This document shows positions 7,511 to 56,326 of a stretch of 59,418 bases of DNA, piece after piece. The position numbers and the translations under genes were made by a program. This DNA is from an uncultured Gammaproteobacteria bacterium (lineage in GTDB: Bacteria > Patescibacteriota > Patescibacteriia > JACPHY01): NCBI GenBank assembly GCA_964585225.1, contig CAZPCZ010000002.1, positions 1-59,418 on the forward strand. Direction: 5' to 3'. Positions within the stretch are counted from its first letter, which is position 1, and the number at the start of each line of letters is the position of its first letter. Below the pieces are notes generated by a model. It was not told the DNA's origin and ran no database searches. It worked only from the letters and a program-made list of their open reading frames with translations.

Positions 7511-8062
7511 TCATCTCGTGCGCGTGCTCCGCAACCATCCGACGATCCCACCGAGGATCAATAGGTCCGCGACGTTGAAGGCCGGAAAGAGGTTCGTGAA
7601 TGAGAGGTAGTCGGTCACGCCGCCGAGGAACGTGCGGTCGGTGAGGTTCGAGAGCGCGCCGAGCACGATCGCCACGATCGCTACGCGGCGATCGAAAACC
7701 CGAAATCCTCCTCCAAAGGCGGATCCGCCTCTGGCGGAGAAATCCGAAATCCGAAACAAACCCGAAAGTTCAAATTTTGAAAATTTGATTTTTGGAAATT
7801 GTTTCGAGTTTCGAGTTTCGAGTTTCGAGTTTCGCCGCAGCTCCCACAGGAGCACTGCGACGATGGCCCATCCCACTGGCCAGATCCACGCGTTCGGCAC
7901 TGGCAGCGAGAACGCGAGGACGTCATTCACGGACGGTGCGAGGCCGATCGTGCCGAAGCGCGTCGGGAATGAAAAACGCCCGAGGGCATTGGGGTTCATC
8001 CGCGCAACGATCTTCAACGCGACATCAATCGCGAATGGGATGAGGAGGAATGCGCTGCGCAT
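7511..8062 (-). CDS. lspA: Lipoprotein signal peptidase II with in-frame repeat insertion
   Basis: VNDVLAFSL, GALSNLTDR, VTDYL and FNVAD motifs; ~47-aa insert NSKLETRNSK...SARGGSAFGGGFRVF. Confidence 0.85.
   Translation of the reverse strand: MRSAFLLIPFAIDVALKIVARMNPNALGRFSFPTRFGTIGLAPSVNDVLAFSLPVPNAWIWPVGWAIVAVLLWELRRNSKLETRNSKQFPKIKFSKFELSGLFRISDFSARGGSAFGGGFRVFDRRVAIVAIVLGALSNLTDRTFLGGVTDYLSFTNLFPAFNVADLLILGGIVGWLRSTRTR
7693..7834. repeat. Heptamer-array inverted-repeat element with nested 30-nt palindrome, in frame in lspA
   Basis: (CCGAAAT)-type left arm, (TTTCGAG)x4-5 right arm, nested TCCTCCAAAGGCGGATCCGCCTCTGGCGGA at 7709-7738. Confidence 0.9.
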
Positions 8063-8075
8063 CGTTTCGAGATAC

Positions 8076-8471
8076 CTAGACCGCGTTCGCCTTCCGCTCG
8101 ACTTTGCACGCGATGCACGCGCTCGACGTCGGTCGCGCGAGCAGGCGTTTTTCATCAATCGGCTTGCTGCAGTACCGACAGGTGCCGTACGTCCCGCCCT
8201 CGATACGCGAGAGCGCGTTCGTGACGTCACGGAGCTCCTTCTCGAGCGTCCGCTCGAGCGAGAGGTTATCGGAGTAGATCGTCACCTCCGCGGCGTTCTC
8301 ATCCTCGCTCCGTCCGACATCCGCGTACCGCGCCTGCCAGTCGCCGGACGCATGCGGGTTACGCGACGCGAACGCCTTGAGCTCGACCTCGAGCTGCGTT
8401 TTCCGCTCTCGGAGCTTCTGCTCGATGGATCGGAGGCGCTCCTGTGTGAGTGGTGAGGTGGATGTCGCCAT
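8076..8471 (-). CDS. dksA: TraR/DksA C4-type zinc finger protein
   Basis: Coiled coil plus GTYGTCRYCSKPIDEKRLLARPTSSACIAC; adjacent to lspA. Confidence 0.85.
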   Translation of the reverse strand: MATSTSPLTQERLRSIEQKLRERKTQLEVELKAFASRNPHASGDWQARYADVGRSEDENAAEVTIYSDNLSLERTLEKELRDVTNALSRIEGGTYGTCRYCSKPIDEKRLLARPTSSACIACKVERKANAV

Positions 8472-8479
8472 AGGTCCCC

Positions 8480-8930
8480 GTAGGGCCCAGCATACCCCGA
8501 CAAGAATTACCTGTCCAGTGCCCTGCAAAAGGAAAGAGGCGTGAGTCGTGCTCCGCCGTTTTGATGGCGGTAATGGTTGCTGCACGTCCCACGCCTCCCC
8601 ATGAGGTCCCTGGCTGGTCCCCGACCCGCTTGCGCAGGGCAGAGAAGTCCCACCGTGGACCCGAGCGCGCGCTGACCCGCGCCAATCCCCCCCTTCCATT
8701 CTCCGGGTGGCCACAAGCTTCATCAGCGAGGGACTGCACCCTTTTTGCTTTTGGTTTGCAAAAGCGGTCCGGCCTCGGTCAGCGACGAGACCAATGGAAT
8801 AGGAGAGGGGGAGGGAACTCCGTTCGTCATCACCGGAATCACACGAGCCGGAGACGCCAAAACGGATCGGCACTGGACGCCGGCCCGATGAGACCAACCG
8901 GAGGTCCCTCGTTCTCGTTCCCATCCGTCA
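8480..8930 (-). ncRNA. Putative ~450-nt structured leader or ncRNA (part weakly 6S-like)
   Basis: Non-coding region downstream of a good promoter; multiple stems incl. GTCCCTCGCTG/CAGCCAGGGAC, GGGAAC/GTTCCC, GCTTTTG/CAAAAGC. Confidence 0.35.
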
Positions 8931-14126: not shown

Positions 14127-15197
14127 ATGCAGCTCCCGAATGCTATCCGGCAGTTTCTCGAATACTGTGAGGTCGAGCGCGGGCGGTCGCCGGCGACCGT
14201 CCGGATGTACGCGTTCGTGCTCGAACGGTTCGCGACGTTCGCGGAAACGAAATGTGTCCGCACGACCGATCAACTCACCCTCGAGCTCATCCGACAATTC
14301 CGTCTCTGGCTCCATCGGCGGCCGGGCCGGAAGGGCGAAACGCTCACGAAGGGCACGCAGGCGCTCCACCTCGTCGTGATCCGCGCATTCCTGAAATACC
14401 TCACGAAACGGGACATCCCGTCCCTCGCCGCGGAAAAAATCGAGCTCCCTAAAACAGAAGACCGCCAGGTCGAATTCCTCGAGCCGGAGGAGGTCGAGCG
14501 GCTACTCGATGCGCCGTTGGCGCAGAATAAAGAATCGAGAATGAAGAATCAAGGGAAATCGAAATCGAAGGCCATCATTCATGATTCATTATTCATCATT
14601 CACCTCCGCGACAAGGCCATCCTCGAGGTCCTCTTCTCCACCGGCATGCGCGTTGGGGAACTCGTCTCGCTCCAACGCGACGACGTGAACCTCGAGCGAG
14701 ACGAGTTCGCGGTGCGGGGCAAGGGTGGGAAGGTACGCGTTGTGTTCCTATCTCCGGAAGCGAAGCAGTCACTGCGGCGGTACCTCGATGCTCGTGCCGA
14801 CATGAGCCCATTCCTATTCGTACGGCACGATCGAGCGGCCGCTCTTGTGTCATCCCGAGCGAAGCCGAGGGATCTCACGCGAGGCAAGCGTGCGATGAGT
14901 GAGATTTCTCGCTTTGCTCGAAATGACGAACGGGGTGACGATCAACCCCTCACCGCCCGATCCGTCGAACGCCTCGTCCAGCGGTACGCGCGTGCGGCGG
15001 GAATCATGAAACCGGTGCACCCGCACACGCTCCGGCACTCCTTCGCGACCGATCTCCTGCGCGGCGGCGCACAGCTCCGCGAGGTGCAGGCGATGCTCGG
15101 CCACGCCTCTATCACGACGACACAAATCTACACGCACGTGACCGAGCAGCACCTCCGCGAAGCGCACAAACGATTCCATCGCCGAAAACACCGTTGA
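14127..15197 (+). CDS. XerC/XerD-like tyrosine recombinase with two in-frame palindromic inserts
   Basis: STGMRVGEL (R), GKGGKVR (K), HPHTLRHSFAT (HxxR), LGH, TQIYTHV (Y). Confidence 0.93.
   Translation: MQLPNAIRQFLEYCEVERGRSPATVRMYAFVLERFATFAETKCVRTTDQLTLELIRQFRLWLHRRPGRKGETLTKGTQALHLVVIRAFLKYLTKRDIPSLAAEKIELPKTEDRQVEFLEPEEVERLLDAPLAQNKESRMKNQGKSKSKAIIHDSLFIIHLRDKAILEVLFSTGMRVGELVSLQRDDVNLERDEFAVRGKGGKVRVVFLSPEAKQSLRRYLDARADMSPFLFVRHDRAAALVSSRAKPRDLTRGKRAMSEISRFARNDERGDDQPLTARSVERLVQRYARAAGIMKPVHPHTLRHSFATDLLRGGAQLREVQAMLGHASITTTQIYTHVTEQHLREAHKRFHRRKHR
14525..14602. repeat. Heptamer inverted-repeat element in frame in the Xer gene
   Basis: AGAATAA AGAATCG AGAATGA AGAATCA ... TCATTCA TGATTCA TTATTCA TCATTCA; encodes NKESRMKNQGKSKSKAIIHDSLFIIH. 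Confidence 0.85.
14849..14927. repeat. GTCATYYCGAG...GAAATGAC-family palindromic element in frame in the Xer gene
   Basis: GTCATCCCGAGCGAAGCCGAGGGATCTCAC...GTGAGATTTCTCGCTTTGCTCGAAATGAC. Confidence 0.85.
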
Positions 15198-15247: not shown

Positions 15248-15277
15248 TCCGCCAGAGGCGGATCCGCCTTGGGTGGA
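15248..15277. repeat. 30-nt palindrome (SARGGSAFGG family), intergenic copy
   Basis: TCCGCCAGAGGCGGATCCGCCTTGGGTGGA; related copies at 7709-7738 and 42654-42683. Confidence 0.85.
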
Positions 15278-19590: not shown

Positions 19591-20402
19591 TCGTCATCGT
19601 CCTCCCCACCCACAACGAGGCCGCGATCATCCGAGCGAACCTCGAACGCCTCCTCGCGTTCCTGTCCCAGGGTACCGCTCCCACCGATTTCAACGATCGT
19701 GGAAAAGGGTGGGATCGTCCGTCTACCGATCAATGGCGCGTTATCATCGCAGATAACGCCTCGACGGATGCCACACGGGCGATCGTGCGCGAGGTCGCGG
19801 CACGCGAGTCTTCTGTCGAGCTCCTCGAGATTCCCGAAGTCGGAAAAGGCGGCGCGGTGCTCGCAGCGTGGCAGAAAGCCGCTGGTCAAATGTCAAATGT
19901 CAAATGTCAAATGTCGCCGGTGTTCGTTTTCATGGACGCCGACCTGGCGACGGACCTCGCGGCGCTCCCCGCCCTCATCTCCGCCATCCGCAACGGCCCG
20001 CCTTCGCGAAACGCTCCGGCGAGGGAACCTGCCGACATCGCCGTCGGCTCACGCTACCTCCCCGGGAGCCGCACCGAGCGCGGTAGCCTCCGACGGCTCA
20101 CCTCGTGGTGCTACCGCCTACTCCTGCGATTGCTCTTCAGTCTCCACGTTTCTGATCCTCCGTGCGGATTTAAGGCGGTGAACGAGCGGGTGGTGCGGGA
20201 GATCGCGCCGCTCGTACGCGACCGGCAATGGTTTTTCGACACCGAGCTCCTCATCCGCGCGCAGGCAGCGGGCATGCACATCGCGGAGGTCCCGGTGACG
20301 TGGCACGAGCCGCGTCGTGACCGCTCATTCGGAAAGGTCCTCCGCATCACGTGGAGCGACCTTCTGGCGATGTGGCGGCTCCGACGTGAGCTCCGCGCGT
20401 AA
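19587..20402 (+). CDS. GT2 glycosyltransferase (dolichyl-phosphate glucosyltransferase-like) with in-frame inserts
   Basis: VIVLPTHNEA, IIADNASTD, GKGGAV, FMDADLA, VGSRY, DPPCGFKA, WFFDTELL; inserts at 19679-19714, 19885-19915 (GTCAAAT x4), 19997-20027. Confidence 0.9.
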   Translation: MVVIVLPTHNEAAIIRANLERLLAFLSQGTAPTDFNDRGKGWDRPSTDQWRVIIADNASTDATRAIVREVAARESSVELLEIPEVGKGGAVLAAWQKAAGQMSNVKCQMSPVFVFMDADLATDLAALPALISAIRNGPPSRNAPAREPADIAVGSRYLPGSRTERGSLRRLTSWCYRLLLRLLFSLHVSDPPCGFKAVNERVVREIAPLVRDRQWFFDTELLIRAQAAGMHIAEVPVTWHEPRRDRSFGKVLRITWSDLLAMWRLRRELRA

Positions 20403-21232: not shown

Positions 21233-23821
21233 ATGGCGGATCAGGACGAACGGAAGACCATGCGCGTCACCATCGTCATCCCCACGTACAACGAACGCGA
21301 GAATCTGCGACCGCTCATCGAGCGGATCGCGGCATTGCCCACTCCGTACGACGTCCTCATTGTCGACGATAACTCTCCGGATGGTACCGGTGATCTTGCA
21401 GAGGAGCTCGCGCGTCACCCCCTCCCGCTCCCCCTCAAAACGAGGGGGAGGGTCCGCGTCCTTCGCCGTGAGCGCAAAGAGGGCCTCGGGGCCGCGTACG
21501 TCGCGGGATTCCATGAGGCGTTGACGCAGGGGGCGGAGGTCATCGTCCAGATGGATGCGGACGGCTCACATGATCCGAGCGAGCTCCTGGGGATGATCGA
21601 GGCGCTCTCCACGAGAACGAAGACGAATCCACGAATGGACACGAATCTACGAAATATTCGTGACATTGGTGTTCATTCGCGAATTCGTGCTCCCGTGGAT
21701 CTCGTCATTGGTTCTCGCCGCGTCCCCGGCGGGCGCATCGTCGGTTGGGGCCTGCACCGCCGCCTCGCGAGCTGGATGGCGCAAGTCCTCGCCCGCGTCC
21801 TGCTCGGCTTCCGCGCCCGCGATATCACGAGCGGGTTCCGGGTGTGGCGCGCAGCGGCGCTCCGAGTGGCGCTCGACTACCCTCCCCCTCAACTCCCTCT
21901 CCCGAGGGGAGAGGGAGAAAAGAGAAGAGAACATCTCGCATCTGGCTATGCGTTCCAAGAGGAACTCCTCTACCGGGCAGAGCAGCTCGGGCTCCGCGTT
22001 GCCGAGCACCCGATCACCTTCCGCGACCGCGAGCGCGGTCGCTCGAAACTTGGGATCCGTGACATCCTCGGGTTCTTCCGATCGCTCGCGCGCCTGTGGT
22101 GGTCCGATCGCGAGCGCCGCTTCGCGGTGTGGCTCGGCGTGAGTCTTGTAGTCCTCACGAGCCTCCCGTACCTCTACGGCTGGCTCCGCACGCCACCCGG
22201 CCACGTGTACACCGGCGTCCACGCGCTCGCGTCCGGCGACATGGCCGTGTACGGCTCGTACATCGAGCAGGTCCGCGATGGTCGGTGGCTGTTCGTGGAT
22301 CTCTTCACCTCCGAATGGCCGCAGCGCGGACTCCTCAATATCTTCTGGCTCCCGGTTGGCCTCCTCGCGCGCGTCGCCCACCTCCCGACCATCCTCACCT
22401 TCCATCTCGCACGCGTGCTCCTCATCATCCCGTTCGTGCTGTTCCTCGCCCGGTTCGTCGCTGCGTTTCTCCGCACGCCGATCGCGGGGTTCCCGCTCCG
22501 TACCGTGCACCGGATTGCACTCCTCTTCCTCGCGTTCTCCTCGGGCCTCGGCCCGCTCGTCGCAAACGCGATTCTGCCGCTCTCGAACGCACGCTGGCGC
22601 ACCGGCTATGACTTCTGGCCCATGGACCTCTGGGTACCGGAGTCCAACACGTTCCTCACGCTCTTCCAATCCCCTCACTTCATTGCGTCACTCTGGCTCC
22701 TCCTCGCGATCATCCTCGCAACTCTACGTTTTGCCGAGCAGAGACAAGCGGGGTCGGCACATGATACGAGATCCTTCGCTTCACTCAGGATGACACAGCG
22801 GTGGGGTCGCTCCATCTTCGCTGGTATCGCCGCGCTCGCACTTTTCCAATTCCACCCATTCTACGTCCCAACCGTCGCGGTGCTGCTCGCCGCGTGGACA
22901 GTCGTCGAGTCGATCGTCGCTCGTCGCGTTCGCTGGGACCTCGTCGGCCACGGCGCAATCGTCGGCATCCTCAGCGCCCCGTCCGTGCTCTCCCACCTCT
23001 GGCTCGTCCAGACGGATCCGATCACGAGCGCGCGCGCGAGCCAGAACCTCCTCTTCACGACCGACTGGTGGCTCGTCGCGCTGAGCTACGGCTTCCTCGT
23101 CCCGCTCGCTGCAATCGGAATCGCACGGCTCTTTCGTGGACGAACGATCGAGGGACGGCTGCTCCTTGTCTGGCTCGTCGCGACCATCGTCCTCATGTAC
23201 TCCCCGCTCACCTGGCAACGCCGGCTCGTCGAGGGGCTCCACGTCGTCGTCGTACTCATCGCAATCCTCGGGCTCTTCCCGTTCCTCGCGTGGCTGCGAG
23301 CGCGCGCCCCAAAATGGGTCCATCGGTACGCATGGGGCGTTACCACCGCGACCATCATCGCCATCCCGCTCTTCGGCGTCTCCACCGTCGTGAACCTCGT
23401 GCGGGATGTCGTCCTCTACACGATCCGATTCCCGCAGTCGATCCCGCGTCACTCGTTCTACTACCCCAGCGATGCGCTCGATGCGATGCGCTGGATCCGG
23501 GGACACGCGCCGCTCGGCGAAGCGACGTTCGCGGTCGGCATTGATGGGCATTTCCTTCCAATGTTCGCCGCGCGACAGACCGTCCTCGGGCATGGCGTCG
23601 AGACCGCGCACTTCGTCGAGAAGTACGAAACGAGCTACGCGCTCTCGCTCGGGCGACTCTCCCCAACCGAGGCACGCGCATTCCTCGAACGCGAGCGCGC
23701 ACGTTTCATCCTCGTCACGGATGCGAGCCGCGGCCTCTGGACCATTGATCCCGCCTCGCTCCCCGGCGCGACACTCGCGTACCGGAACGGCGGGGCGGAG
23801 ATGTATGAGTTGAGGCCGTAG
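21233..23821 (+). CDS. Fusion of GT2 polyprenol-phosphate mannosyltransferase-like domain and multi-pass GT-C-like membrane domain
   Basis: VIPTYNERENL, VDDNSPDGTG, QMDADGSH, GYAFQEEL, then ~12 TM segments; in-frame inserts at ~21417-21454, 21610-21690, 21880-21916, 22768-22795. Start may be 21260. Confidence 0.85.
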   Translation: MADQDERKTMRVTIVIPTYNERENLRPLIERIAALPTPYDVLIVDDNSPDGTGDLAEELARHPLPLPLKTRGRVRVLRRERKEGLGAAYVAGFHEALTQGAEVIVQMDADGSHDPSELLGMIEALSTRTKTNPRMDTNLRNIRDIGVHSRIRAPVDLVIGSRRVPGGRIVGWGLHRRLASWMAQVLARVLLGFRARDITSGFRVWRAAALRVALDYPPPQLPLPRGEGEKRREHLASGYAFQEELLYRAEQLGLRVAEHPITFRDRERGRSKLGIRDILGFFRSLARLWWSDRERRFAVWLGVSLVVLTSLPYLYGWLRTPPGHVYTGVHALASGDMAVYGSYIEQVRDGRWLFVDLFTSEWPQRGLLNIFWLPVGLLARVAHLPTILTFHLARVLLIIPFVLFLARFVAAFLRTPIAGFPLRTVHRIALLFLAFSSGLGPLVANAILPLSNARWRTGYDFWPMDLWVPESNTFLTLFQSPHFIASLWLLLAIILATLRFAEQRQAGSAHDTRSFASLRMTQRWGRSIFAGIAALALFQFHPFYVPTVAVLLAAWTVVESIVARRVRWDLVGHGAIVGILSAPSVLSHLWLVQTDPITSARASQNLLFTTDWWLVALSYGFLVPLAAIGIARLFRGRTIEGRLLLVWLVATIVLMYSPLTWQRRLVEGLHVVVVLIAILGLFPFLAWLRARAPKWVHRYAWGVTTATIIAIPLFGVSTVVNLVRDVVLYTIRFPQSIPRHSFYYPSDALDAMRWIRGHAPLGEATFAVGIDGHFLPMFAARQTVLGHGVETAHFVEKYETSYALSLGRLSPTEARAFLERERARFILVTDASRGLWTIDPASLPGATLAYRNGGAEMYELRP

Positions 23822-30595: not shown

Positions 30596-32049
30596 AGAGT
30601 TTGATTTACCTTTTCGGCGGTGAGCTGGAGCGCCTGGTTGGGGTCCGCGCTGCGGAGCACGTCATCCATGAGCTCATGGAACGCGGTTTCCGCGGCCTCC
30701 GGCTGCACCCCGCGGTACCACGTGCGACTGGTGAGGAGCTGGGCGGCGAAGACTTTCAGCTGCGGATCCTGGAGCTGCTCGGCGACGAGGCTCCGGAGCG
30801 CGGTCGGCCGCTGGGCAGCCGCGAGGACCTGCTTCACGACCGGGGTCTTCGTCGCCATGAAATTGACGAGATCCCACGTCTCGTTCGGGTGCTTCGTGCG
30901 CTCGGAGACGGTCTGGAGCCAGAGGTTCGCGTAGTTGATCGCGACGGCCTGAGTCCCCTCGATGACGTCGCTTCCGACGACGGTGCCGGTCGTCGGGTCC
31001 ACCGCCGCCGCGATGTGTGGAATGCCGGTGACGCTCAGGTTGATGCGCGGCGCGCGCGCCGTGATGATCGGCCGGTGGTAGCTGTAGCCGAAGAAGTACG
31101 CAACGCGTCCCTGGAGGAACGCTTCGAGGGAATCCGGCTGCTCCGCGTTCCAGGTGTAGATGAGCTTCGTCGGGTTCGCGAAGTCCGTGTAGTAGAGGAG
31201 CGCGTCGAGTCCCGGCGGCGTCTGGCGCGTGCCGGAGAGCGCGGAGGGAATCTGGTGAAAGCGCACCTCGCCATCCGGCGTTGCCATGACCGCACCGTTC
31301 TGCATCATGAGGAGCGAGAGGAGATCGAACGACCGCTGGACGTTGCGAGCAGTGCCGATCGCCGCACCAGACTGGACGAGCTTGCCGGCAGCGTCGAGCT
31401 TCGTGAGTCGTGGGATGTGCGTCTGGAGCTCCGTCCACGTCTTCGCCGGCTCCGGGATGCCGGCGGCGTTCAGGAGATCGCGGTTCGCGTACGTCACGAG
31501 CGTATCGACGGCGAGCGGGAGGCCGAACACCGCAGGCTCGGATGCCTTCCCCTCGACGGGCTCGGTCTCGAACACCGCGTCCTGGACGACCGCATCGAGG
31601 AAGAGGTTCCCGAGCTCCGACGGCGCGGGGAGCCGCGTCGTGCGGAGCTCTGCGTAGAGCTCCTTCTTCACGCTCCCACGCAACTCCTTGAACGGCATCG
31701 TCACCGCGCGCGGCGCCGGGAGGAGCTTCGAGCGGTACTTCCGCGCCCACGATGACGGCAGCGCGAAGATGTCTGGCCCCTTGAAGTCCCCCTCTGCGAT
31801 CGCATTGAGGAGCCGGCGTTCGTACTCGTCGAACCGGAACCGACGGTACGTGATCGACACGTGCGGGTTGATCTTCCGGTACTCGTCGAGGATCGGTTGC
31901 ACCTCATCTTCGGTCTCCTGCACGCCCCACCATTCGAGCTGGACGGGCTTCAAGCGCGCCGCGACATCCTTCGGGATGCCTTTCTTGCAGCCAGCGCCGA
32001 GGAGCAGCAGAGCAGCAGAGCAGCAGAGCAGCAGTGCCTTGAATCTCAT
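30592..32049 (-). CDS. Extracellular solute-binding lipoprotein (family 1, sugar-binding-like)
   Basis: Lipobox LGAG-C, GPDIFAL, FGLPLAVDTLVTYANRDLL; (GAGCAGCA)x4 repeat at 32002-32033 in the signal peptide. Confidence 0.88.
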   Translation of the reverse strand: MRFKALLLCCSAALLLLGAGCKKGIPKDVAARLKPVQLEWWGVQETEDEVQPILDEYRKINPHVSITYRRFRFDEYERRLLNAIAEGDFKGPDIFALPSSWARKYRSKLLPAPRAVTMPFKELRGSVKKELYAELRTTRLPAPSELGNLFLDAVVQDAVFETEPVEGKASEPAVFGLPLAVDTLVTYANRDLLNAAGIPEPAKTWTELQTHIPRLTKLDAAGKLVQSGAAIGTARNVQRSFDLLSLLMMQNGAVMATPDGEVRFHQIPSALSGTRQTPPGLDALLYYTDFANPTKLIYTWNAEQPDSLEAFLQGRVAYFFGYSYHRPIITARAPRINLSVTGIPHIAAAVDPTTGTVVGSDVIEGTQAVAINYANLWLQTVSERTKHPNETWDLVNFMATKTPVVKQVLAAAQRPTALRSLVAEQLQDPQLKVFAAQLLTSRTWYRGVQPEAAETAFHELMDDVLRSADPNQALQLTAEKVNQTL

Positions 32050-41964: not shown

Positions 41965-43149
41965 TCACTGTACATCACGACGGGGGCCCGAGAACAGTCG
42001 AGGGGCGGGGAGCCATCGCACGTCGTCAATGGATGCCGCATTCGTAAGGAGCATAACAAGGCGATCGACGCCGAGGGCCATGCCGGCCGTCGGTGGCATG
42101 CGGCGGAGGGCGGCGATGAAATCCATGTCGATCGGGTAGACCGGCTTCCCGAGTTTCCGGCGGAGGCGCTGATCGGCCCGGAATCGCGCGAGTTGTTCAT
42201 CTGCGTCGGTGAGCTCTGAAAATCCGTTCGCGATCTCGAGACCACCGATGTAGAGCTCGACGCGCTCAGCGTAGCGCGGGTCTTTGGATTTCTTCCGCGC
42301 AAGCGCAGCCATCTGCACGGGCCAGTCAAGGAGGAATGTCGGACGCGTTCTCCCAAGTTTCGGCTCCACCTCCGTGAGGTGGATCTTGAAAAAGAGATCG
42401 TCGAAGGTATCGTCCGTCGTCACCGTATATCCCTTCGCGCGACATACTCTCGCCATCGCCGCGCGTGCCCCGCGAAAGTGGCCAACCCCCGGGGTTGGCC
42501 ACTTTGTGGACCCGAGGAGGTGATCGAGGTCGAGCTTCGCGTACCGCTTCCACGCCTGACGCATGGTAAGCCGCTCCCAGGGCGTGGTGAGGTTGATGGA
42601 TTGGCCTCGGTAGGAAATCTTGAATTTTGAATTTTGAATTTGTTTGGAATTTGTCCGCCAGAGGCGGATCCGCCTTTGGCGGAGAATTTGGTTCTTGGTC
42701 ATTCCGCGATGCTCGTCGGGGAGGATAGCGTCGAGGAGATGGGAGAGCAACGTCTCACAGTCAACCATGAGCGCCCGGTAGTCCGCATCACGGTGGTACC
42801 ATTCGAGCATCGTGAACTCGGGATTGTGCGTGCCGCCCCAGGGCTCACCGTCACGAAAGACCGGACCGATTTCAAAAAGACCTGGCGCCTGACACCTGAC
42901 ACCTGACACCTGACCAAGGCACTTCTTCAGTGAAAACTCCGGACTCATGCGGAGAAAGGCATCATGCGCACGTCCGCGCTCGTCATGGACCGTCGTCCGC
43001 AGGGGTTCAAGGTACGGCTCCTGCGATGGATGTGCGAGCATCACCGGAGTCTCAACCTCTAAAAAATTCCGCGCCCAAAAAAACTCACGGATCCCTCGCA
43101 GGATCCGGTGCCGCTCCATGAGTCGATCCTGTTGCGTACGATCCGTCAT
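41965..43149 (-). CDS. epmA: EF-P lysine aminoacylase EpmA/GenX with three in-frame repeat inserts
   Basis: FLEVETP, LRMSPEFSLK, FRDGE..THNPEFTMLEWY, ERVELYIGGLEIANGFSEL, GMALGVDRL; no anticodon-binding domain. Inserts at 42475-42505, 42617-42703, 42888-42915. Confidence 0.88.
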   Translation of the reverse strand: MTDRTQQDRLMERHRILRGIREFFWARNFLEVETPVMLAHPSQEPYLEPLRTTVHDERGRAHDAFLRMSPEFSLKKCLGQVSGVRCQAPGLFEIGPVFRDGEPWGGTHNPEFTMLEWYHRDADYRALMVDCETLLSHLLDAILPDEHRGMTKNQILRQRRIRLWRTNSKQIQNSKFKISYRGQSINLTTPWERLTMRQAWKRYAKLDLDHLLGSTKWPTPGVGHFRGARAAMARVCRAKGYTVTTDDTFDDLFFKIHLTEVEPKLGRTRPTFLLDWPVQMAALARKKSKDPRYAERVELYIGGLEIANGFSELTDADEQLARFRADQRLRRKLGKPVYPIDMDFIAALRRMPPTAGMALGVDRLVMLLTNAASIDDVRWLPAPRLFSGPRRDVQ

Positions 43150-43409
43150 TCCGGGATGTACGGCATCAACGCCATGACCCGTGCGCGTTTGATGGCCGTC
43201 TTCAGCTTCCGCTGGTGCGCGGTGCACACGCCGGAGCGGCGCGTCGGGGCAATCTTCTTGTACGAGGACACGAACCGCCCGAGGAGCTGCACATCCTTGT
43301 AGTCCGGCTCCTCGATGTGGTGGATGCAGAAGAAGCAGTGCCGCTGCTCGGGGATGATGCGGCTCTTGCGTTTCGTACGTGATGGCGGCGCATTCGGAGG
43401 GAGTGACAT
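43146..43409 (-). CDS. rpsR: 30S ribosomal protein S18 (Zn-binding type)
   Basis: CFFC...DYKDV...KIAPTRRSGVCTAHQRKLKTAIKRAR. Confidence 0.96.
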   Translation of the reverse strand: MSLPPNAPPSRTKRKSRIIPEQRHCFFCIHHIEEPDYKDVQLLGRFVSSYKKIAPTRRSGVCTAHQRKLKTAIKRARVMALMPYIPE

Positions 43410-43411
43410 GG

Positions 43412-43487
43412 GAGTTATGAGTGATGAGTTATGAGTGATGAGTTGATCGCCCTTCCCCCTTCACTCGTCCCTCTTCCCTCTTCACTT
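43412..43487. repeat. Heptamer inverted-repeat element between ssb and rpsR
   Basis: (GAGTGAT/GAGTTAT)n-GATCG-(TTCCCTC/TTCACTC)n; near copy at 43941-44015. Confidence 0.85.
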
Positions 43488-43940: not shown

Positions 43941-44015
43941 AGAAGTGATGAGTGATGAGTTACGAGTGATGAGTTGATCGTTCCCTCTTCACTCTTCCCT
44001 CTTCACTCTTCCCTT
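43941..44015. repeat. Heptamer inverted-repeat element between rpsF and ssb
   Basis: GAGTGATGAGTTACGAGTGATGAGTTGATCG-TTCCCTCTTCACTCTTCCCTCTTCACTC. Confidence 0.85.
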
Positions 44016-52044: not shown

Positions 52045-53337
52045 ATGCAAACTACGACAACATCGCTCCCAAAATCATCCATCAGCATCGACGTCGAGCT
52101 CGCGGTTGAGGAACTCCAGCCGTACCTTCGCAAAGCTGCGGAGGCGCTGTCGCGTGAGCATCCGATGAAGGGGTTCCGCCCGGGCAAAGTGCCGTACGAC
52201 GTCGCGGTTCAACGGTATGGCGCTGTGGCACTCTACGAGGAGGCGGCGGACCAGGCGGTGCGCGACGCGTACGTCCGCGCGGTGCGCGAGCAGAACCTGA
52301 AGACCGTCGGCTCCCCGCGCATCGAGGTGAAGACGCTCGCGCCGGACAATCCCATGAAGTTCACCGCCACGGTTGCAGTACTCCCGGCCGTCGTGCTGCC
52401 GGACCTCAGCACGATCTCGGTCACGCGAAGAGCCGTGCGTATCGCGCCGAACGACGTCGACCGTGCGCTCGAGGACCTCCGCAAGTTGCAGCCGACCGAG
52501 GCGCTCGTCGATCGTCCAGCCACCGCGACGGATAAGGTCGTCGTCGACCTCGACCTCTCGCGGGAGAACGTGCCGCTCGAGGGCGGACAAGCGCGTGGCC
52601 ATCAGATCGAGCTCACGGAATCGTACTACCTCCCGAAAGTGAAAGAGGAACTCATTGGGATGTCGCGGGGCGAGACGAAATCATTCCCGCTCGCGTTTCC
52701 CGCCGACCACTACCAGAAGCACCTCGCGGGGACGACGGTCGATTGCTCAGTCACGGTGAAGGACGTGTACAGCGTCGAACTCCCGCCCATCGACGATGCG
52801 TTCGCGAAACGACTCGGGCAGGGGGACCTCGCGGCGCTCCGGGTCCTCATCGAACGGAACCTCACCGCAGAATCAGAGAAGAAGGCGGCTGATGCGGAGG
52901 AGATCGAGATGCTCGACGCGATCATGGATCGCGCGACCATTGCCGACCTCCCAGAGATCCTCATCACCGGCGAGGCGCGACGGATGATCGACGAGCTCGA
53001 GCGTGGCGTCGGAAGCCAAGGACTCACGTTCGACGAGTACCTGACGAAGCTCAAGAAGACGCGCGATGAAATCCTCCTCGACTTCGCACCGGATGCCGTG
53101 CGTCGCGTGAAGGTCGCACTCGTGACACGGGCCATCGCCGAAGCGAACGTGGAGGCGACCGCGGTCACAGACGACGAAGTCAAATCTGAAGTCCAGCAGC
53201 AGCTCGCGCGGTACGAGGACACGCCGGAATTCCGCCAACGCATGCAGTCCGAGGAAGCGCGGGACTACGTGGCCTCAATGCTCCGCAACCGCAAAGTCAT
53301 CGCGTGGCTGCGGGGGCAGGTGAAGTGGCGAAACTAG
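52045..53337 (+). CDS. tig: Trigger factor
   Basis: MKGFRPGKVP signature, FKBP-like middle domain, C-terminal domain. Confidence 0.95.
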   Translation: MQTTTTSLPKSSISIDVELAVEELQPYLRKAAEALSREHPMKGFRPGKVPYDVAVQRYGAVALYEEAADQAVRDAYVRAVREQNLKTVGSPRIEVKTLAPDNPMKFTATVAVLPAVVLPDLSTISVTRRAVRIAPNDVDRALEDLRKLQPTEALVDRPATATDKVVVDLDLSRENVPLEGGQARGHQIELTESYYLPKVKEELIGMSRGETKSFPLAFPADHYQKHLAGTTVDCSVTVKDVYSVELPPIDDAFAKRLGQGDLAALRVLIERNLTAESEKKAADAEEIEMLDAIMDRATIADLPEILITGEARRMIDELERGVGSQGLTFDEYLTKLKKTRDEILLDFAPDAVRRVKVALVTRAIAEANVEATAVTDDEVKSEVQQQLARYEDTPEFRQRMQSEEARDYVASMLRNRKVIAWLRGQVKWRN

Positions 53338-53458
53338 AAACTCGAAATTCGAATTTCGAAATCCGAAACAAGCACGAATGTTCAAATGAACCAAAGAACG
53401 TTTTGAGTTTTCGCCTTTTGAATTTGTTTCGGATTTCGAGTTTCGTGCTTCGGATTTC
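53329..53458. repeat. Heptamer inverted-repeat element overlapping the tig stop
   Basis: CGAAACT AGAAACT CGAAATT CGAATTT CGAAATC ... TTTCGGA TTTCGAG TTTCGTG CTTCGGA; same family as the lspA insert. Confidence 0.9.
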
Positions 53459-53467
53459 TTTCCACGC

Positions 53468-54304
53468 ATGCCAATCGGTGCTCACGTTTCCATCGCGGGC
53501 GGTATCTGGAACGCACCCGAACGCGCGGCGGCACTCGGGTGCGAGTGTTTCCAGTTGTTCACGCGCTCGCCGCAGGGAGGCGGCGCGCCGCCACTTACCG
53601 ACGAGGGCGTGAAGAAGTTCCGCGCAGCGTGCGAGACGCACGGCCAGCAGCTCTGGGTCGTGCACACGCCGTACTACATCAACCTCGCATCGAAAGAGGA
53701 ACGTACGCGCGCGAATTCCGCGCGCGTCATCCGTGACGAACTCGAACGCGCGTCGCTCATCGGTGCGACGTACGTCATGACGCACCTCGGGAGCGCGAAG
53801 GACGTCGGGCAATCGCAAGGCGTCACATACGCTGCCCAAGGACTCCGCAAAGCGCTCGATGGCTACACCGGCTCCGCCCAATTCCTCATCGAAATCTCCG
53901 CCGGCGCCGGTTCCGTCATCGGGGGGACGTTCGAGGAAGTCGCGCAGCTCCTCACCATGATCGACCGCGAGGACGTGGGGATCTGCTTCGACACCCAGCA
54001 CGCCTTCGGTTCCGGCTACGATCTCCGTACGCCCGAGGCGGTCGCGGAAACCATGCAGAAGTTCGACGCGACGATCGGTCTCCACCGCCTCAGAATGTCC
54101 CACGTGAACGACTCGAAAGTGGAACTCGGCGCGCACAAGGATCGCCACGAGCACATCGGCCACGGCCACATCGGCGCCGACGGCATCCGCGCCTTTGTCC
54201 AAAGTCGAGCTTTGGACAACCTCCCGCTCATCATCGAAACCGAGGACGGCCCCGAACGCGCGGAGGACGTGCGGCTCCTCAAGGAGTTTCGTGGAAACAT
54301 TTGA
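53468..54304 (+). CDS. nfo: Endonuclease IV
   Basis: IGAHVSIAGG, HTPYYINLAS, ICFDTQHAF, HVNDSK, DRHEHIG, IIET. Confidence 0.95.
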   Translation: MPIGAHVSIAGGIWNAPERAAALGCECFQLFTRSPQGGGAPPLTDEGVKKFRAACETHGQQLWVVHTPYYINLASKEERTRANSARVIRDELERASLIGATYVMTHLGSAKDVGQSQGVTYAAQGLRKALDGYTGSAQFLIEISAGAGSVIGGTFEEVAQLLTMIDREDVGICFDTQHAFGSGYDLRTPEAVAETMQKFDATIGLHRLRMSHVNDSKVELGAHKDRHEHIGHGHIGADGIRAFVQSRALDNLPLIIETEDGPERAEDVRLLKEFRGNI

Positions 54305-54925: not shown

Positions 54926-55843
54926 ATGGTTCGTAATCTCATCATCATCGGTGGCGGTCCGGCGGCGCTCACGGCGGCGATCTACGCGGGACGCGCGTCA
55001 TTGCGGCCGCTCGTGTTCGCGGGCGCGATGCCGGGTGGGCAGCTCATGCTGACCTCCGAGGTCGAGAACTACCCGGGGTTCGACGACCCCATCATGGGAC
55101 CGGAGCTCATGGAGCGGTGGCGCAAGCAGGCGCAGCGGTACGGCGCGGAGTTCGTGGATGAGGACGTCACCGCGGTGGACTTCTCCAAACAACCGTTCCG
55201 CGTCACCGTTGGCGCACAAACGTACGAGACGAAATCGGTGATCGTCGCGACCGGTGCGACCGCGAAGTGGCTCGGGATCCCCAACGAGCAGCGCCTCATC
55301 GGGAAGGGCGTCCACACGTGCGCGCAGTGCGACGGATTCGCGTACACCGGCAAACACGTCGTGGTGGTCGGTGGTGGCGATACCGCGATGGAGGAAACGA
55401 CGACGCTCGCGAAGATCGCCACAAAGGTCACGGTCGTCCACCGCCGGTCGGAGCTCCGCGCCTCAAAGATCATGGCGGATCGCGCGCTCGCCAACCCCAA
55501 AGTTGAGTTCATTTGGAACACGGCGGTTGAGGAGGTGCTCGGAGACACGCGCACGACCGGCGTAAAACTCAAGAACCTCGAAACGAACGCGGTGCGCGAG
55601 TTCCCATGTGACGGCCTCTTCGTCGCCATCGGCTACACCCCCGCGACCGCATTCCTCAAGGGCCAGCTCGAACTCAACGACAAAGGATACGTTATCGTCC
55701 ACGATCACACACGAACATCTGTGGAGGGCGTCTTCGCCGCCGGCGATGTCGAGGACTTCCGGTACCGGCAGGCGGTGACGGCCGCAGGCGCGGGTTGCGC
55801 TGCGGCCATTGATGCGGAACGATGGTTAGCCACGAATTCCTAA
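54926..55843 (+). CDS. trxB: Thioredoxin reductase
   Basis: GGGPAALTAA, VENYPGF, CAQCDG, GGGDTAME, VFAAGDV. Confidence 0.96.
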   Translation: MVRNLIIIGGGPAALTAAIYAGRASLRPLVFAGAMPGGQLMLTSEVENYPGFDDPIMGPELMERWRKQAQRYGAEFVDEDVTAVDFSKQPFRVTVGAQTYETKSVIVATGATAKWLGIPNEQRLIGKGVHTCAQCDGFAYTGKHVVVVGGGDTAMEETTTLAKIATKVTVVHRRSELRASKIMADRALANPKVEFIWNTAVEEVLGDTRTTGVKLKNLETNAVREFPCDGLFVAIGYTPATAFLKGQLELNDKGYVIVHDHTRTSVEGVFAAGDVEDFRYRQAVTAAGAGCAAAIDAERWLATNS

Positions 55844-56326
55844 TGACGAATTTCTAATTTCTAATCAAATCCCAATGCCCAATGATCAAATGACCAAAAC
55901 GAAGTTCGATCTCGAGGAGCGAACAGCGAGATTCGGCGAAGAGGTCATCCGCTTTGCGAAGAAGATACCAGAGAACGCGGTCACGAGACCACTCATTTCA
56001 CAGTGTGTCCGAGCTGGGACGAGCATCGGCGCGAACTACTGCGAGGCCGACGATGCGGAATCGCGAAAGGATTTCGTCCACAAGATTGGCATCTGCAAGA
56101 AGGAGGCGCGCGAGTGCAAGCACTGGCTCCGCATGATCGTCGTGGCAGTCCCGGAACTCACTCATGGGGCGCGGGTGCTCTGGCAAGAGGCGAAGGAGCT
56201 CAACCTCATTTTCAACGCGATCACTCGCTCGAGTCGCGACCACGAACGGTAGGAGCGCTCAATCGTCATTGGTGCTTGGGCATTACGTCATTGATTAGAA
56301 ATTAGGAATTAGAAATTAGGAATTCG
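55833..56326 (+). mobile_element. Candidate element: four-helix-bundle gene bracketed by inverted heptamer arrays
   Basis: Left arm CGAATTCCTAATGACGAATTTCTAATTTCTAATCAA... (55833-55895) is an imperfect inverse of right arm ...TTGATTAGAAATTAGGAATTAGAAATTAGGAATTCG (56263-56326). Confidence 0.6.
55875..56252 (+). CDS. Four helix bundle protein (23S-IVS/Avd-like family)
   Basis: FDLEERTARF, QCVRAGTSIGANYCEAD.AESRKDF.HK..I..KE..E..HWL. Confidence 0.92.
   Translation: MPNDQMTKTKFDLEERTARFGEEVIRFAKKIPENAVTRPLISQCVRAGTSIGANYCEADDAESRKDFVHKIGICKKEARECKHWLRMIVVAVPELTHGARVLWQEAKELNLIFNAITRSSRDHER

Follow-up and report, generated by a model that had tools for sequence, protein, structure and literature searches.

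The lspA gene in the window (the whole 59,418-nt stretch of DNA that was analyzed) contains, in frame among the codons for the TM2-TM3 loop of its protein, a copy of a widespread hairpin repeat that carries no genes, as is seen directly in the DNA and its alignments. The interpretation that is favored here, and that is considered probable, is that this repeat is tolerated in lspA and would be translated as a disordered loop, with LspA presumably staying active. The repeat is AT-rich and ~110 nt long, has arms of CGAAAnn heptamers, and was afterwards split by a separate, GC-rich palindrome of 30 nt. In the favored interpretation, the whole 138-141 nt would be transcribed and translated, giving a loop of 46-47 residues that is mostly hydrophilic and disordered. 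This interpretation is preferred because the reading frame is open, the catalytic motifs and the fold are kept, dN/dS is low, and the closest orthologs lack the hairpin. It is also preferred because family copies elsewhere are open-framed, in-frame members occur in other genes, the window encodes a lipobox substrate, and the contigs across the insert are exact.

The insert and its host gene

The ORF at 7511-8062 belongs to Peptidase_A8/LspA (PF01252, E=6.9e-14 in Pfam) and has the attributes of that family: the match to the Pfam model, the Asp-Asp motifs NxxDR and FNxAD, and the four-TM fold. A profile of this LspA and its relatives matches the structures 9emz/5dir (E ~2e-8) and also 6ryo, and a Foldseek search with the AlphaFold model gives 5dir and 6ryp as the best four matches. 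Both catalytic-Asp motifs, SNLTDR and FNVAD, have been kept despite the insert. In the AlphaFold model, TM2 is H57-85, TM3 is H125-145, and residues 89-122 have a pLDDT <50. An earlier note, made from the sequence alone, had placed the insert between TM segments, and the model bears this out, since the predicted TM2 and TM3 flank residues 78-123; the profile alignment agrees. In an alignment with Pseudomonas LspA, the insert site corresponds to a short TM2-TM3 loop, LKRLKKGETW, which is presumably cytoplasmic, as in the published LspA topology. Arg-Arg pairs lie on either side of the insert.

The same note had described a stop-free, in-frame insert of ~47 codons, consisting of heptamer arrays in which a palindrome of 30 nt is nested. 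The codon map gives 46 codons, or 47 when D124 (7691-7693) is counted, with no stop; the lspA frame is open throughout, and the length of the insert is a multiple of 3. The arrays are recovered by TRF and the palindrome, TCCTCCAAAGGCGGATCCGCCTCTGGCGGA, lies at 7709-7738 (Table 1). The left array, GAAATCC x2.6, is perfect at 7739-7756, and the right arm reads RNSKLETRNSK on the gene strand; the core at 7758-7800 contains no ORF. GC content is 0.40-0.43 at 7700-7849 versus 0.59-0.75 in the flanks. In the window as a whole, 11 period-7 arrays are observed versus 0.00 expected.

Table 1. Features of the lspA insert, its host locus and the sister copy
Feature	Position	Strand	Basis or remark
lspA (lipoprotein signal peptidase II), 183 aa, gene hosting the insert	7511..8062	-	PF01252
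Extra in-frame segment, N78-F123, 46 codons, TM2-TM3 loop	7694..7831	-	codon map, ortholog alignment
GCGGCGA, inverted to TCGCCGC at 7832-7838; stem base = host Arg-Arg codons	7685..7691		fold
Outer left-arm remnant CGAAAACCCGAAATCC	7693..7708		joins 7739-7757 seamlessly once the palindrome is taken out
Nested 30-nt GC-rich double palindrome splitting the left arm	7709..7738		regex
Inner left arm (GAAATCC) x2.6, ends in CGAAATCCGAAAC / CGAAAC	7739..7757		TRF
AT-rich 43-nt core with apical mini-hairpin	7758..7800		folds; homologous to core of 53329 copy
Right arm (GTTTCGA) x4.9, perfect, 100% matches	7801..7834		TRF; inverted to 7739-7757
dksA/traR-type zinc-finger gene, directly upstream of lspA	8076..8480	-	PF01258
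Sister hairpin copy, tig-nfo spacer	53329..53458	+	nhmmer E=1.8e-22, full model

The inverted arms of the insert extend over 40 nt at 75% complementarity and 24 nt at 79%. When the mRNA strand is folded, the insert reaches -72.2 kcal/mol (z = -6.5; 0/200 shuffles as stable) as a single long stem from which the GC palindrome emerges as a side branch; folded as DNA, it reaches -41.1 kcal/mol (z = -6.2). A stem of this length and stability in the lspA transcript might be cut by RNase III, much as an intervening sequence (IVS) is, and expression would then be lowered or split, perhaps alongside some read-through. In Coxiella, IVS hairpins with heptameric repeats are in fact cut by RNase III (PMC4990558), and the window contains a gene for a PF05635 IVS protein that is bracketed by heptamer arms weakly matching the family of the lspA hairpin (E=1.2e-6). 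Nevertheless, such processing is judged improbable as the main fate of the insert. Without religation, cutting would destroy the mRNA, but lspA retains its frame, its reading without stops, and its downstream half, and six other in-frame arrays in the window have been preserved likewise. Furthermore, the stem of the lspA hairpin has a mismatch about every 7 bp. A look-up of RNA runs for this lspA found none that contains it.

Selection on the gene bears on whether LspA is still used. Pairwise dN/dS is 0.08-0.23 in both halves of the gene against the four closest relatives, and against five relatives it is 0.08-0.37 before the insert and 0.12-0.20 after it, values from which, being pairwise, the branch after the insertion cannot be separated out. 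The dksA-like neighbor is conserved in relatives (L003, L004, L131, L132, L133), and the window encodes a lipoprotein with a lipobox (LLGAGC), that is, a substrate of the LspA type. LspA is dispensable in many monoderm bacteria; for the present organism, the term "essential" in the earlier note is an assumption. It could be argued, then, that LspA was dispensable here as well or that the insertion inactivated it, the open frame being a recent accident; in P0003 (L002 135-578), the closest ortholog, the first catalytic Asp is replaced by Gly (NLTGRS). A decaying gene is, however, highly doubtful, given that the window lspA has neither frameshifts nor stops, that both catalytic Asp residues are kept, that dN/dS remains low downstream of the insert, and that the nearby lipobox substrate and the dksA-like synteny are also in place.

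The assembly itself appears sound. The metagenome contains the arms and the GC palindrome in many copies, at which contigs break, and a repeat-induced chimera could in principle have put a dispersed repeat into lspA. This explanation is largely refuted and is now barely credible. In the run that holds the sequence best, which is a hot-spring metagenome and probably represents the source sample, Logan contigs tile 7540-7729, 7721-7828, and 7805-7900 with 0 differences. These three contigs overlap, come from a different assembler, have similar depths (5.4, 4.46, and 7.17), and cross both junctions and the center of the insert. No joint that skips the insert was seen among the source-run contigs, whose depth is only ~5-7x and which miss minority alleles. 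The tiling support comes from this one sample: a second run, X2, has no high-identity contig over the insert junctions, and an exact-protein look-up found no record of further contigs encoding an insert-bearing LspA. In addition, the insert is in frame, at a codon where orthologs from other samples also have arrays.

The repeat family and its fit to reading frames

The insert had been assigned in the earlier note to the same family as the intergenic element at 53329-53458. Once the nested palindrome is removed, the two copies align end to end (the alignment score rises from 66 to 82 with 7709-7738 taken out), and a profile of copies from other genomes matches both. An exact 13-mer at the inner left arm of the lspA copy is found in both arms of the 53329 copy, which has a fold z of -3.7 and lies between tig (52045-53337) and nfo (53468-54304). 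The TAG stop codon of tig (53335-53337) falls within the first heptamers of this hairpin, so that the element ends the gene.

The CGAAATC-type family was defined here from matches in genome contigs of other organisms. The arm-core 15-mer CGAAATCCGAAACAA, which is 7745-7759 exactly, occurs in at least 120 genome loci, although on the order of a thousand occurrences of a 15-mer would be expected by chance in the searched collection. Among the 135 matches listed, 120 have at least one further CGAA unit just upstream of the 15-mer, and the inverted right-arm motif is also present in 69; by eye, most consist of a heptamer arm, CGAAACAA, an A-rich core with a 7-nt period, and an inverted arm. The hosts among the matches listed are MAGs of Planctomycetota, Desulfobacterota, Verrucomicrobiota, and Omnitrophota, together with several CPR lineages, Aminicenantes, WOR-3, Kuenenia, and others. 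From 54 of these foreign copies, with the window's own copies left out, a DNA profile (nhmmer) was made. In the window it matches 53343-53452 (E=1.8e-22) and 7739-7827 (E=3.8e-16) and, more weakly, 55840-55909 (E=1.2e-6) and an insert within an aminoacyl-tRNA synthetase (aaRS) gene at 42607-42652 (E=0.03). The lspA copy thus matches the profile, as does the tig-nfo copy; it also has the left arm of CGAAnnn heptamers that ends in CGAAATCCGAAACAA (7745-7759) and, across an AT-rich core, the inverted right arm TTGTTTCG(R)nTTTCG (7798-7834), which in the family lies 90-170 nt downstream. Family copies are mostly intergenic, with a median length of 146 nt and a GC content of 0.37. The dispersed copies and the presence or absence of the hairpin at given sites suggest that it is mobile.

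Searches for a known identity or a parent element gave little. In Rfam, only tRNAs reached the gathering score, the other matches being generic miRNA-like hairpins with E >0.006, and no description of the CGAAATC-type family was found in the searched literature on heptamer hairpins or on in-frame repeats in CPR bacteria. The PF05635 gene was considered as the possible cargo of a parent cassette; tblastn on copies from other genomes gave only one partial case (L051). By ORF listing, the one-armed family loci have ordinary neighbors, and only L051 adjoins a PF05635-like fragment. In viral-class contigs of IMG/VR (L134-L233), about one quarter of ~100 matches to the 15-mer have the full hairpin by eye (e.g., L136, L159, L163, and L173).

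The numbers 7 and 3 have no common factor, so a heptamer array reads out as one and the same 7-residue repeat whichever of the three frames is used; the CGAAACT array, for instance, encodes RNSKLET. CGAAATC and CGAAACT units contain no stop triplet on either strand, and the right-arm unit GTTTCGA is stop-free in every frame of both strands. Among 64 foreign copies of the family, 2.1 of six frames are open versus 0.24 in shuffles, and lengths are uniform modulo 3; consequently, about one insertion in 10 would keep the host ORF open. The same three frames are open in the lspA and tig-nfo copies, which argues that the lspA copy has undergone no special adaptation. Survival of the insert would thus have needed little luck, given the frame-independent heptamer peptide, the stop-free units, and a palindrome of exactly 10 codons. 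Furthermore, about 7 of the 15 arrays or hairpins of the window are intragenic, and all units of the intragenic arrays are stop-free on the coding strand, whereas the intergenic units (TTCTAAT, GAGTGAT) have stops, a distribution that fits a survivorship filter.

In-frame arrays are present in five other genes of the window: an xerC/D-like gene, two GT2 genes, a class II aaRS gene, and the gene of a lipoprotein solute-binding protein. Elsewhere, a member of the family lies in frame in a Saccharibacteria transketolase subunit (L017), where it separates the two domains, and another lies in frame in an ORF (L117) that encodes TPR repeats at the C-terminal end.

The window arrays are varied in build. 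The XerC/D-type tyrosine recombinase (14127-15197) has an in-frame heptamer hairpin, (AGAATNA)n + (TTCATNA)n at 14524-14602, that corresponds to residues 133-159, between the SAM-like N-domain and the catalytic domain. The class II tRNA synthetase, of the Asp/Lys/Asn type (41965-43227, - strand), has two in-frame arrays: (GAATTTT/G)n at 42610-42700, split by the 30-nt GC palindrome that is also in lspA, and a perfect (ACCTGAC) x5 at 42880-42914. One GT2 glycosyltransferase contains (GTCAAAT) x4.4 in frame at 19885-19915, and in the other an in-frame ACGAATn hairpin splits the GT2 domain at 21620-21695. At 32002-32034, an octamer array, (GAGCAGCA) x4, encodes LLLCCSAALLL, the hydrophobic core of the signal peptide of the lipobox-bearing solute-binding lipoprotein. 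Outside the genes, the spacers to the left and right of ssb, next to rpsF, are filled by two copies of a further hairpin, (GAGTGAT)n-GAGTTGATCG-(TCACTCT)n (43412-43483 and 43944-44014). The PF05635 gene (23S rRNA IVS protein, 55875-56252) lies between inverted arms of the (TTCTAAT) type at 55832-55865 and 56294-56324, and it is the left-arm region of this cassette that gives the weak match to the family profile.

The loop in other LspA proteins and the nested palindrome

LspA orthologs numbered 21 (140-199 aa). In a tree built without the loop, the window LspA groups with P0002, P0003, P0004, P0005, P0007, P0010, and P0016 in a clade whose support is 95/87. The segment is not a conserved domain common to all relatives, an outcome that the earlier note had allowed for, as the hairpin is missing from the orthologs that are closest (P0002, P0003, and P0007). 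The proposal in that note that relatives would define empty sites was right as to the absence of the hairpin there, but the site is not empty: short heptamer arrays occupy it. Loop DNA was compared in 12 orthologs, most of which have a short heptamer array at the insert site, with a unit that is specific to the lineage. The arrays are (GTGTCCG) x5 in L133, (ATTTCAG) x4 in L005, (AATCTCA) x3 + AATTTCA in L132 and L128, (AATGGAG) x4 in L007, an (ATTCCAG)-type array in L131 and L004, and a degenerate GGTCNCN x3 in L002. L006 has a mini-hairpin with inverted Arg-Arg flanks as in the window lspA, and L001 and L129 have no clear array. The solo arrays do not fold. L003 (P0004, and P0005 by protein) has a different hairpin of ~150 nt at the same site (fold z = -3.9). 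In the distant orthologs P0012, P0013, and P0020-P0022 the loops are short and plain; P0021 and P0022 have Glu at the position of the first catalytic Asp.

Given that most orthologs carry an array of another unit at this position, the site is better regarded as variable than as simply filled or empty. Taken together, the comparisons show that the TM2-TM3 loop codons have long been a heptamer site that changes fast and that hairpins have occupied at least two times independently. When the ortholog loops were searched with the family profile, only the solo array of L131 matched, weakly (E=0.005), and the L003 hairpin gave no match. One might speculate from the likeness of the units ATTTCAG and ATTTCGG that the short arrays are relics of the CGAAATC-type family.

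L005 and L132 differ from each other by two substitutions that recur in several units of the array, a signature of concerted evolution. Unit turnover of this kind could also be the footprint of a contingency switch, in which the heptamer arrays slip by one unit and the resulting frame shifts turn LspA on and off. Perfect arrays, which are what such slippage would act on, are found both in the window (GTTTCGA x4.9) and in orthologs [(GTGTCCG)5, (ATTTCAG)4, (AATGGAG)4]. However, all 13 of the 13 sequenced lspA alleles are in frame, the source run shows no length variant or variant joint (at low coverage and in contigs, from which rare variants are lost), and similar arrays are present in the class II aaRS gene of the window, which could not plausibly be turned off. 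A switch is therefore quite improbable.

The nested palindrome has a history of its own. It follows the pattern TCCGCC-NNN-GGCGGATCCGCC-NNN-GGNGGA, copies of which lie in the window at 7709-7738, 15248-15277, and 42654-42683; three of four clean copies sit within heptamer arrays. In lspA, in the aaRS gene, and in the ortholog L004, the array resumes perfectly on the far side of the palindrome, with no duplication. The loops of the orthologs L131 and L004 differ by exactly those 30 nt (10 codons), an exact presence/absence pair. The palindrome is an independent, frame-neutral mini-element. Summed contig depth over it (7708-7741) is 350 to 44,900 versus 0-9 on the lspA flanks (runs X1, X2, X3, and X7). 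By the same measure, it is extremely abundant in hot-spring and groundwater communities (four metagenomes).

As to how the hairpin arrived, transposition, recombination with a resident array, or some unrecognized array-writing machinery can be suggested, each speculatively. A more far-reaching proposal is that the lspA loop in this CPR clade is a standing docking site of a bacteria-wide heptamer system, the same one to which the PF05635/IVS four-helix-bundle cassettes belong. In this proposal, a dedicated trans-acting machinery, rather than random slippage or classical transposition, would keep writing, homogenizing, and replacing both the arrays, with their approximately four units, and the corresponding hairpins. 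Translation through housekeeping proteins would be a tolerated by-product that the frame-independent coding of 7-nt units makes possible. This proposal is considered unlikely.

Comparison with known systems

If the insert is indeed translated and tolerated, it would extend the occurrence of translated selfish palindromic DNA in housekeeping proteins, for which the Rickettsia palindromic elements (RPEs) are the best-known case, to CPR bacteria and to a family that spans many phyla. It would also offer a simple reason why heptamer elements can live in genes, namely, that they give the same peptide in every frame and consist of stop-free units. In addition, the lspA loop constitutes a natural series, in which one codon position has held different arrays, two unrelated hairpins, and a presence/absence pair of the 30-nt palindrome. 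Such a series could be used to test the origin and turnover of the long-unexplained heptamer repeats of bacteria.

The insert resembles several known systems in part. It has the terminal inverted repeats of a MITE; a search for a target-site duplication found no direct repeat beside it, the flanks being the inverted Arg-Arg codons that are also present in the ortholog L006. The IVSs of 23S rRNA in Coxiella, Leptospira, and Salmonella, which occur with or without an S23p/PF05635 ORF (PMC4990558), are likewise long hairpins with terminal inverted repeats in a transcribed gene. Moreover, the stem region of the Coxiella IVS has heptameric repeats (PMC4990558), and the PF05635 gene of the window, too, lies between heptamer arms. 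In contrast to the IVSs, the host here is an ORF rather than helix 25 or 45 of 23S rRNA, and the loop of the lspA copy lacks the ORF of the ORF-bearing type. The preservation of the frame in lspA argues for translation over excision.

Xanthomonas and Nostoc have heptameric SSR arrays (GGGAATC and GGGGAYT, respectively), and cyanobacteria have STRR repeats (PMC4692102). These share with the present arrays the 7-nt unit, a bias to about four units, and frequent convergent inverted pairs able to form stem-loops. However, their units are G-rich, have been read as G-quadruplex formers, and are reported to be under-represented in coding regions (PMC4692102), whereas the present units are A/T-rich or varied, many of them probably being translated. 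Contingency loci, like the lspA insert, are perfect short tandem repeats that lie within an ORF and have a unit length not divisible by 3. They differ in that no copy-number polymorphism is seen here (in contigs at 5-7x) and that the present arrays are also found in genes that would not plausibly be switched off. The small dispersed repeats of cyanobacteria, in work of 2008 attributed to Elhai et al., are reportedly clean insertions in other repeats without duplication. The nested palindrome is like them a tiny palindromic clean insertion; it differs from them in sequence and host phylum, is exactly 30 nt long, and keeps the frame.

A parallel with the Rickettsia elements, in a different sequence family, had been drawn in the earlier note, and the insert does behave like them. 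RPE-1 to RPE-10 (Ogata et al.) are described as palindromic repeats of ~100-150 nt that are dispersed in a small genome, with nearly half of the copies lying in frame in unrelated housekeeping genes in an apparently fold-compatible manner (PMC10969869). The lspA insert is alike in lying in frame in a housekeeping ORF whose fold is, by prediction here, preserved. It is very unlikely, however, that the insert is itself an RPE, given that it is built of heptamers, that its host is of the CPR type, and that its family is spread over many phyla; its sequence is presumably unrelated. The arms here are tandem heptamers, whose coding does not depend on the frame; members of the family occur in many phyla, whereas the RPEs belong to one genus; and, unlike in the RPEs, a second mini-element is nested within the first, in a target loop that bears heptamer arrays in the orthologs as well.
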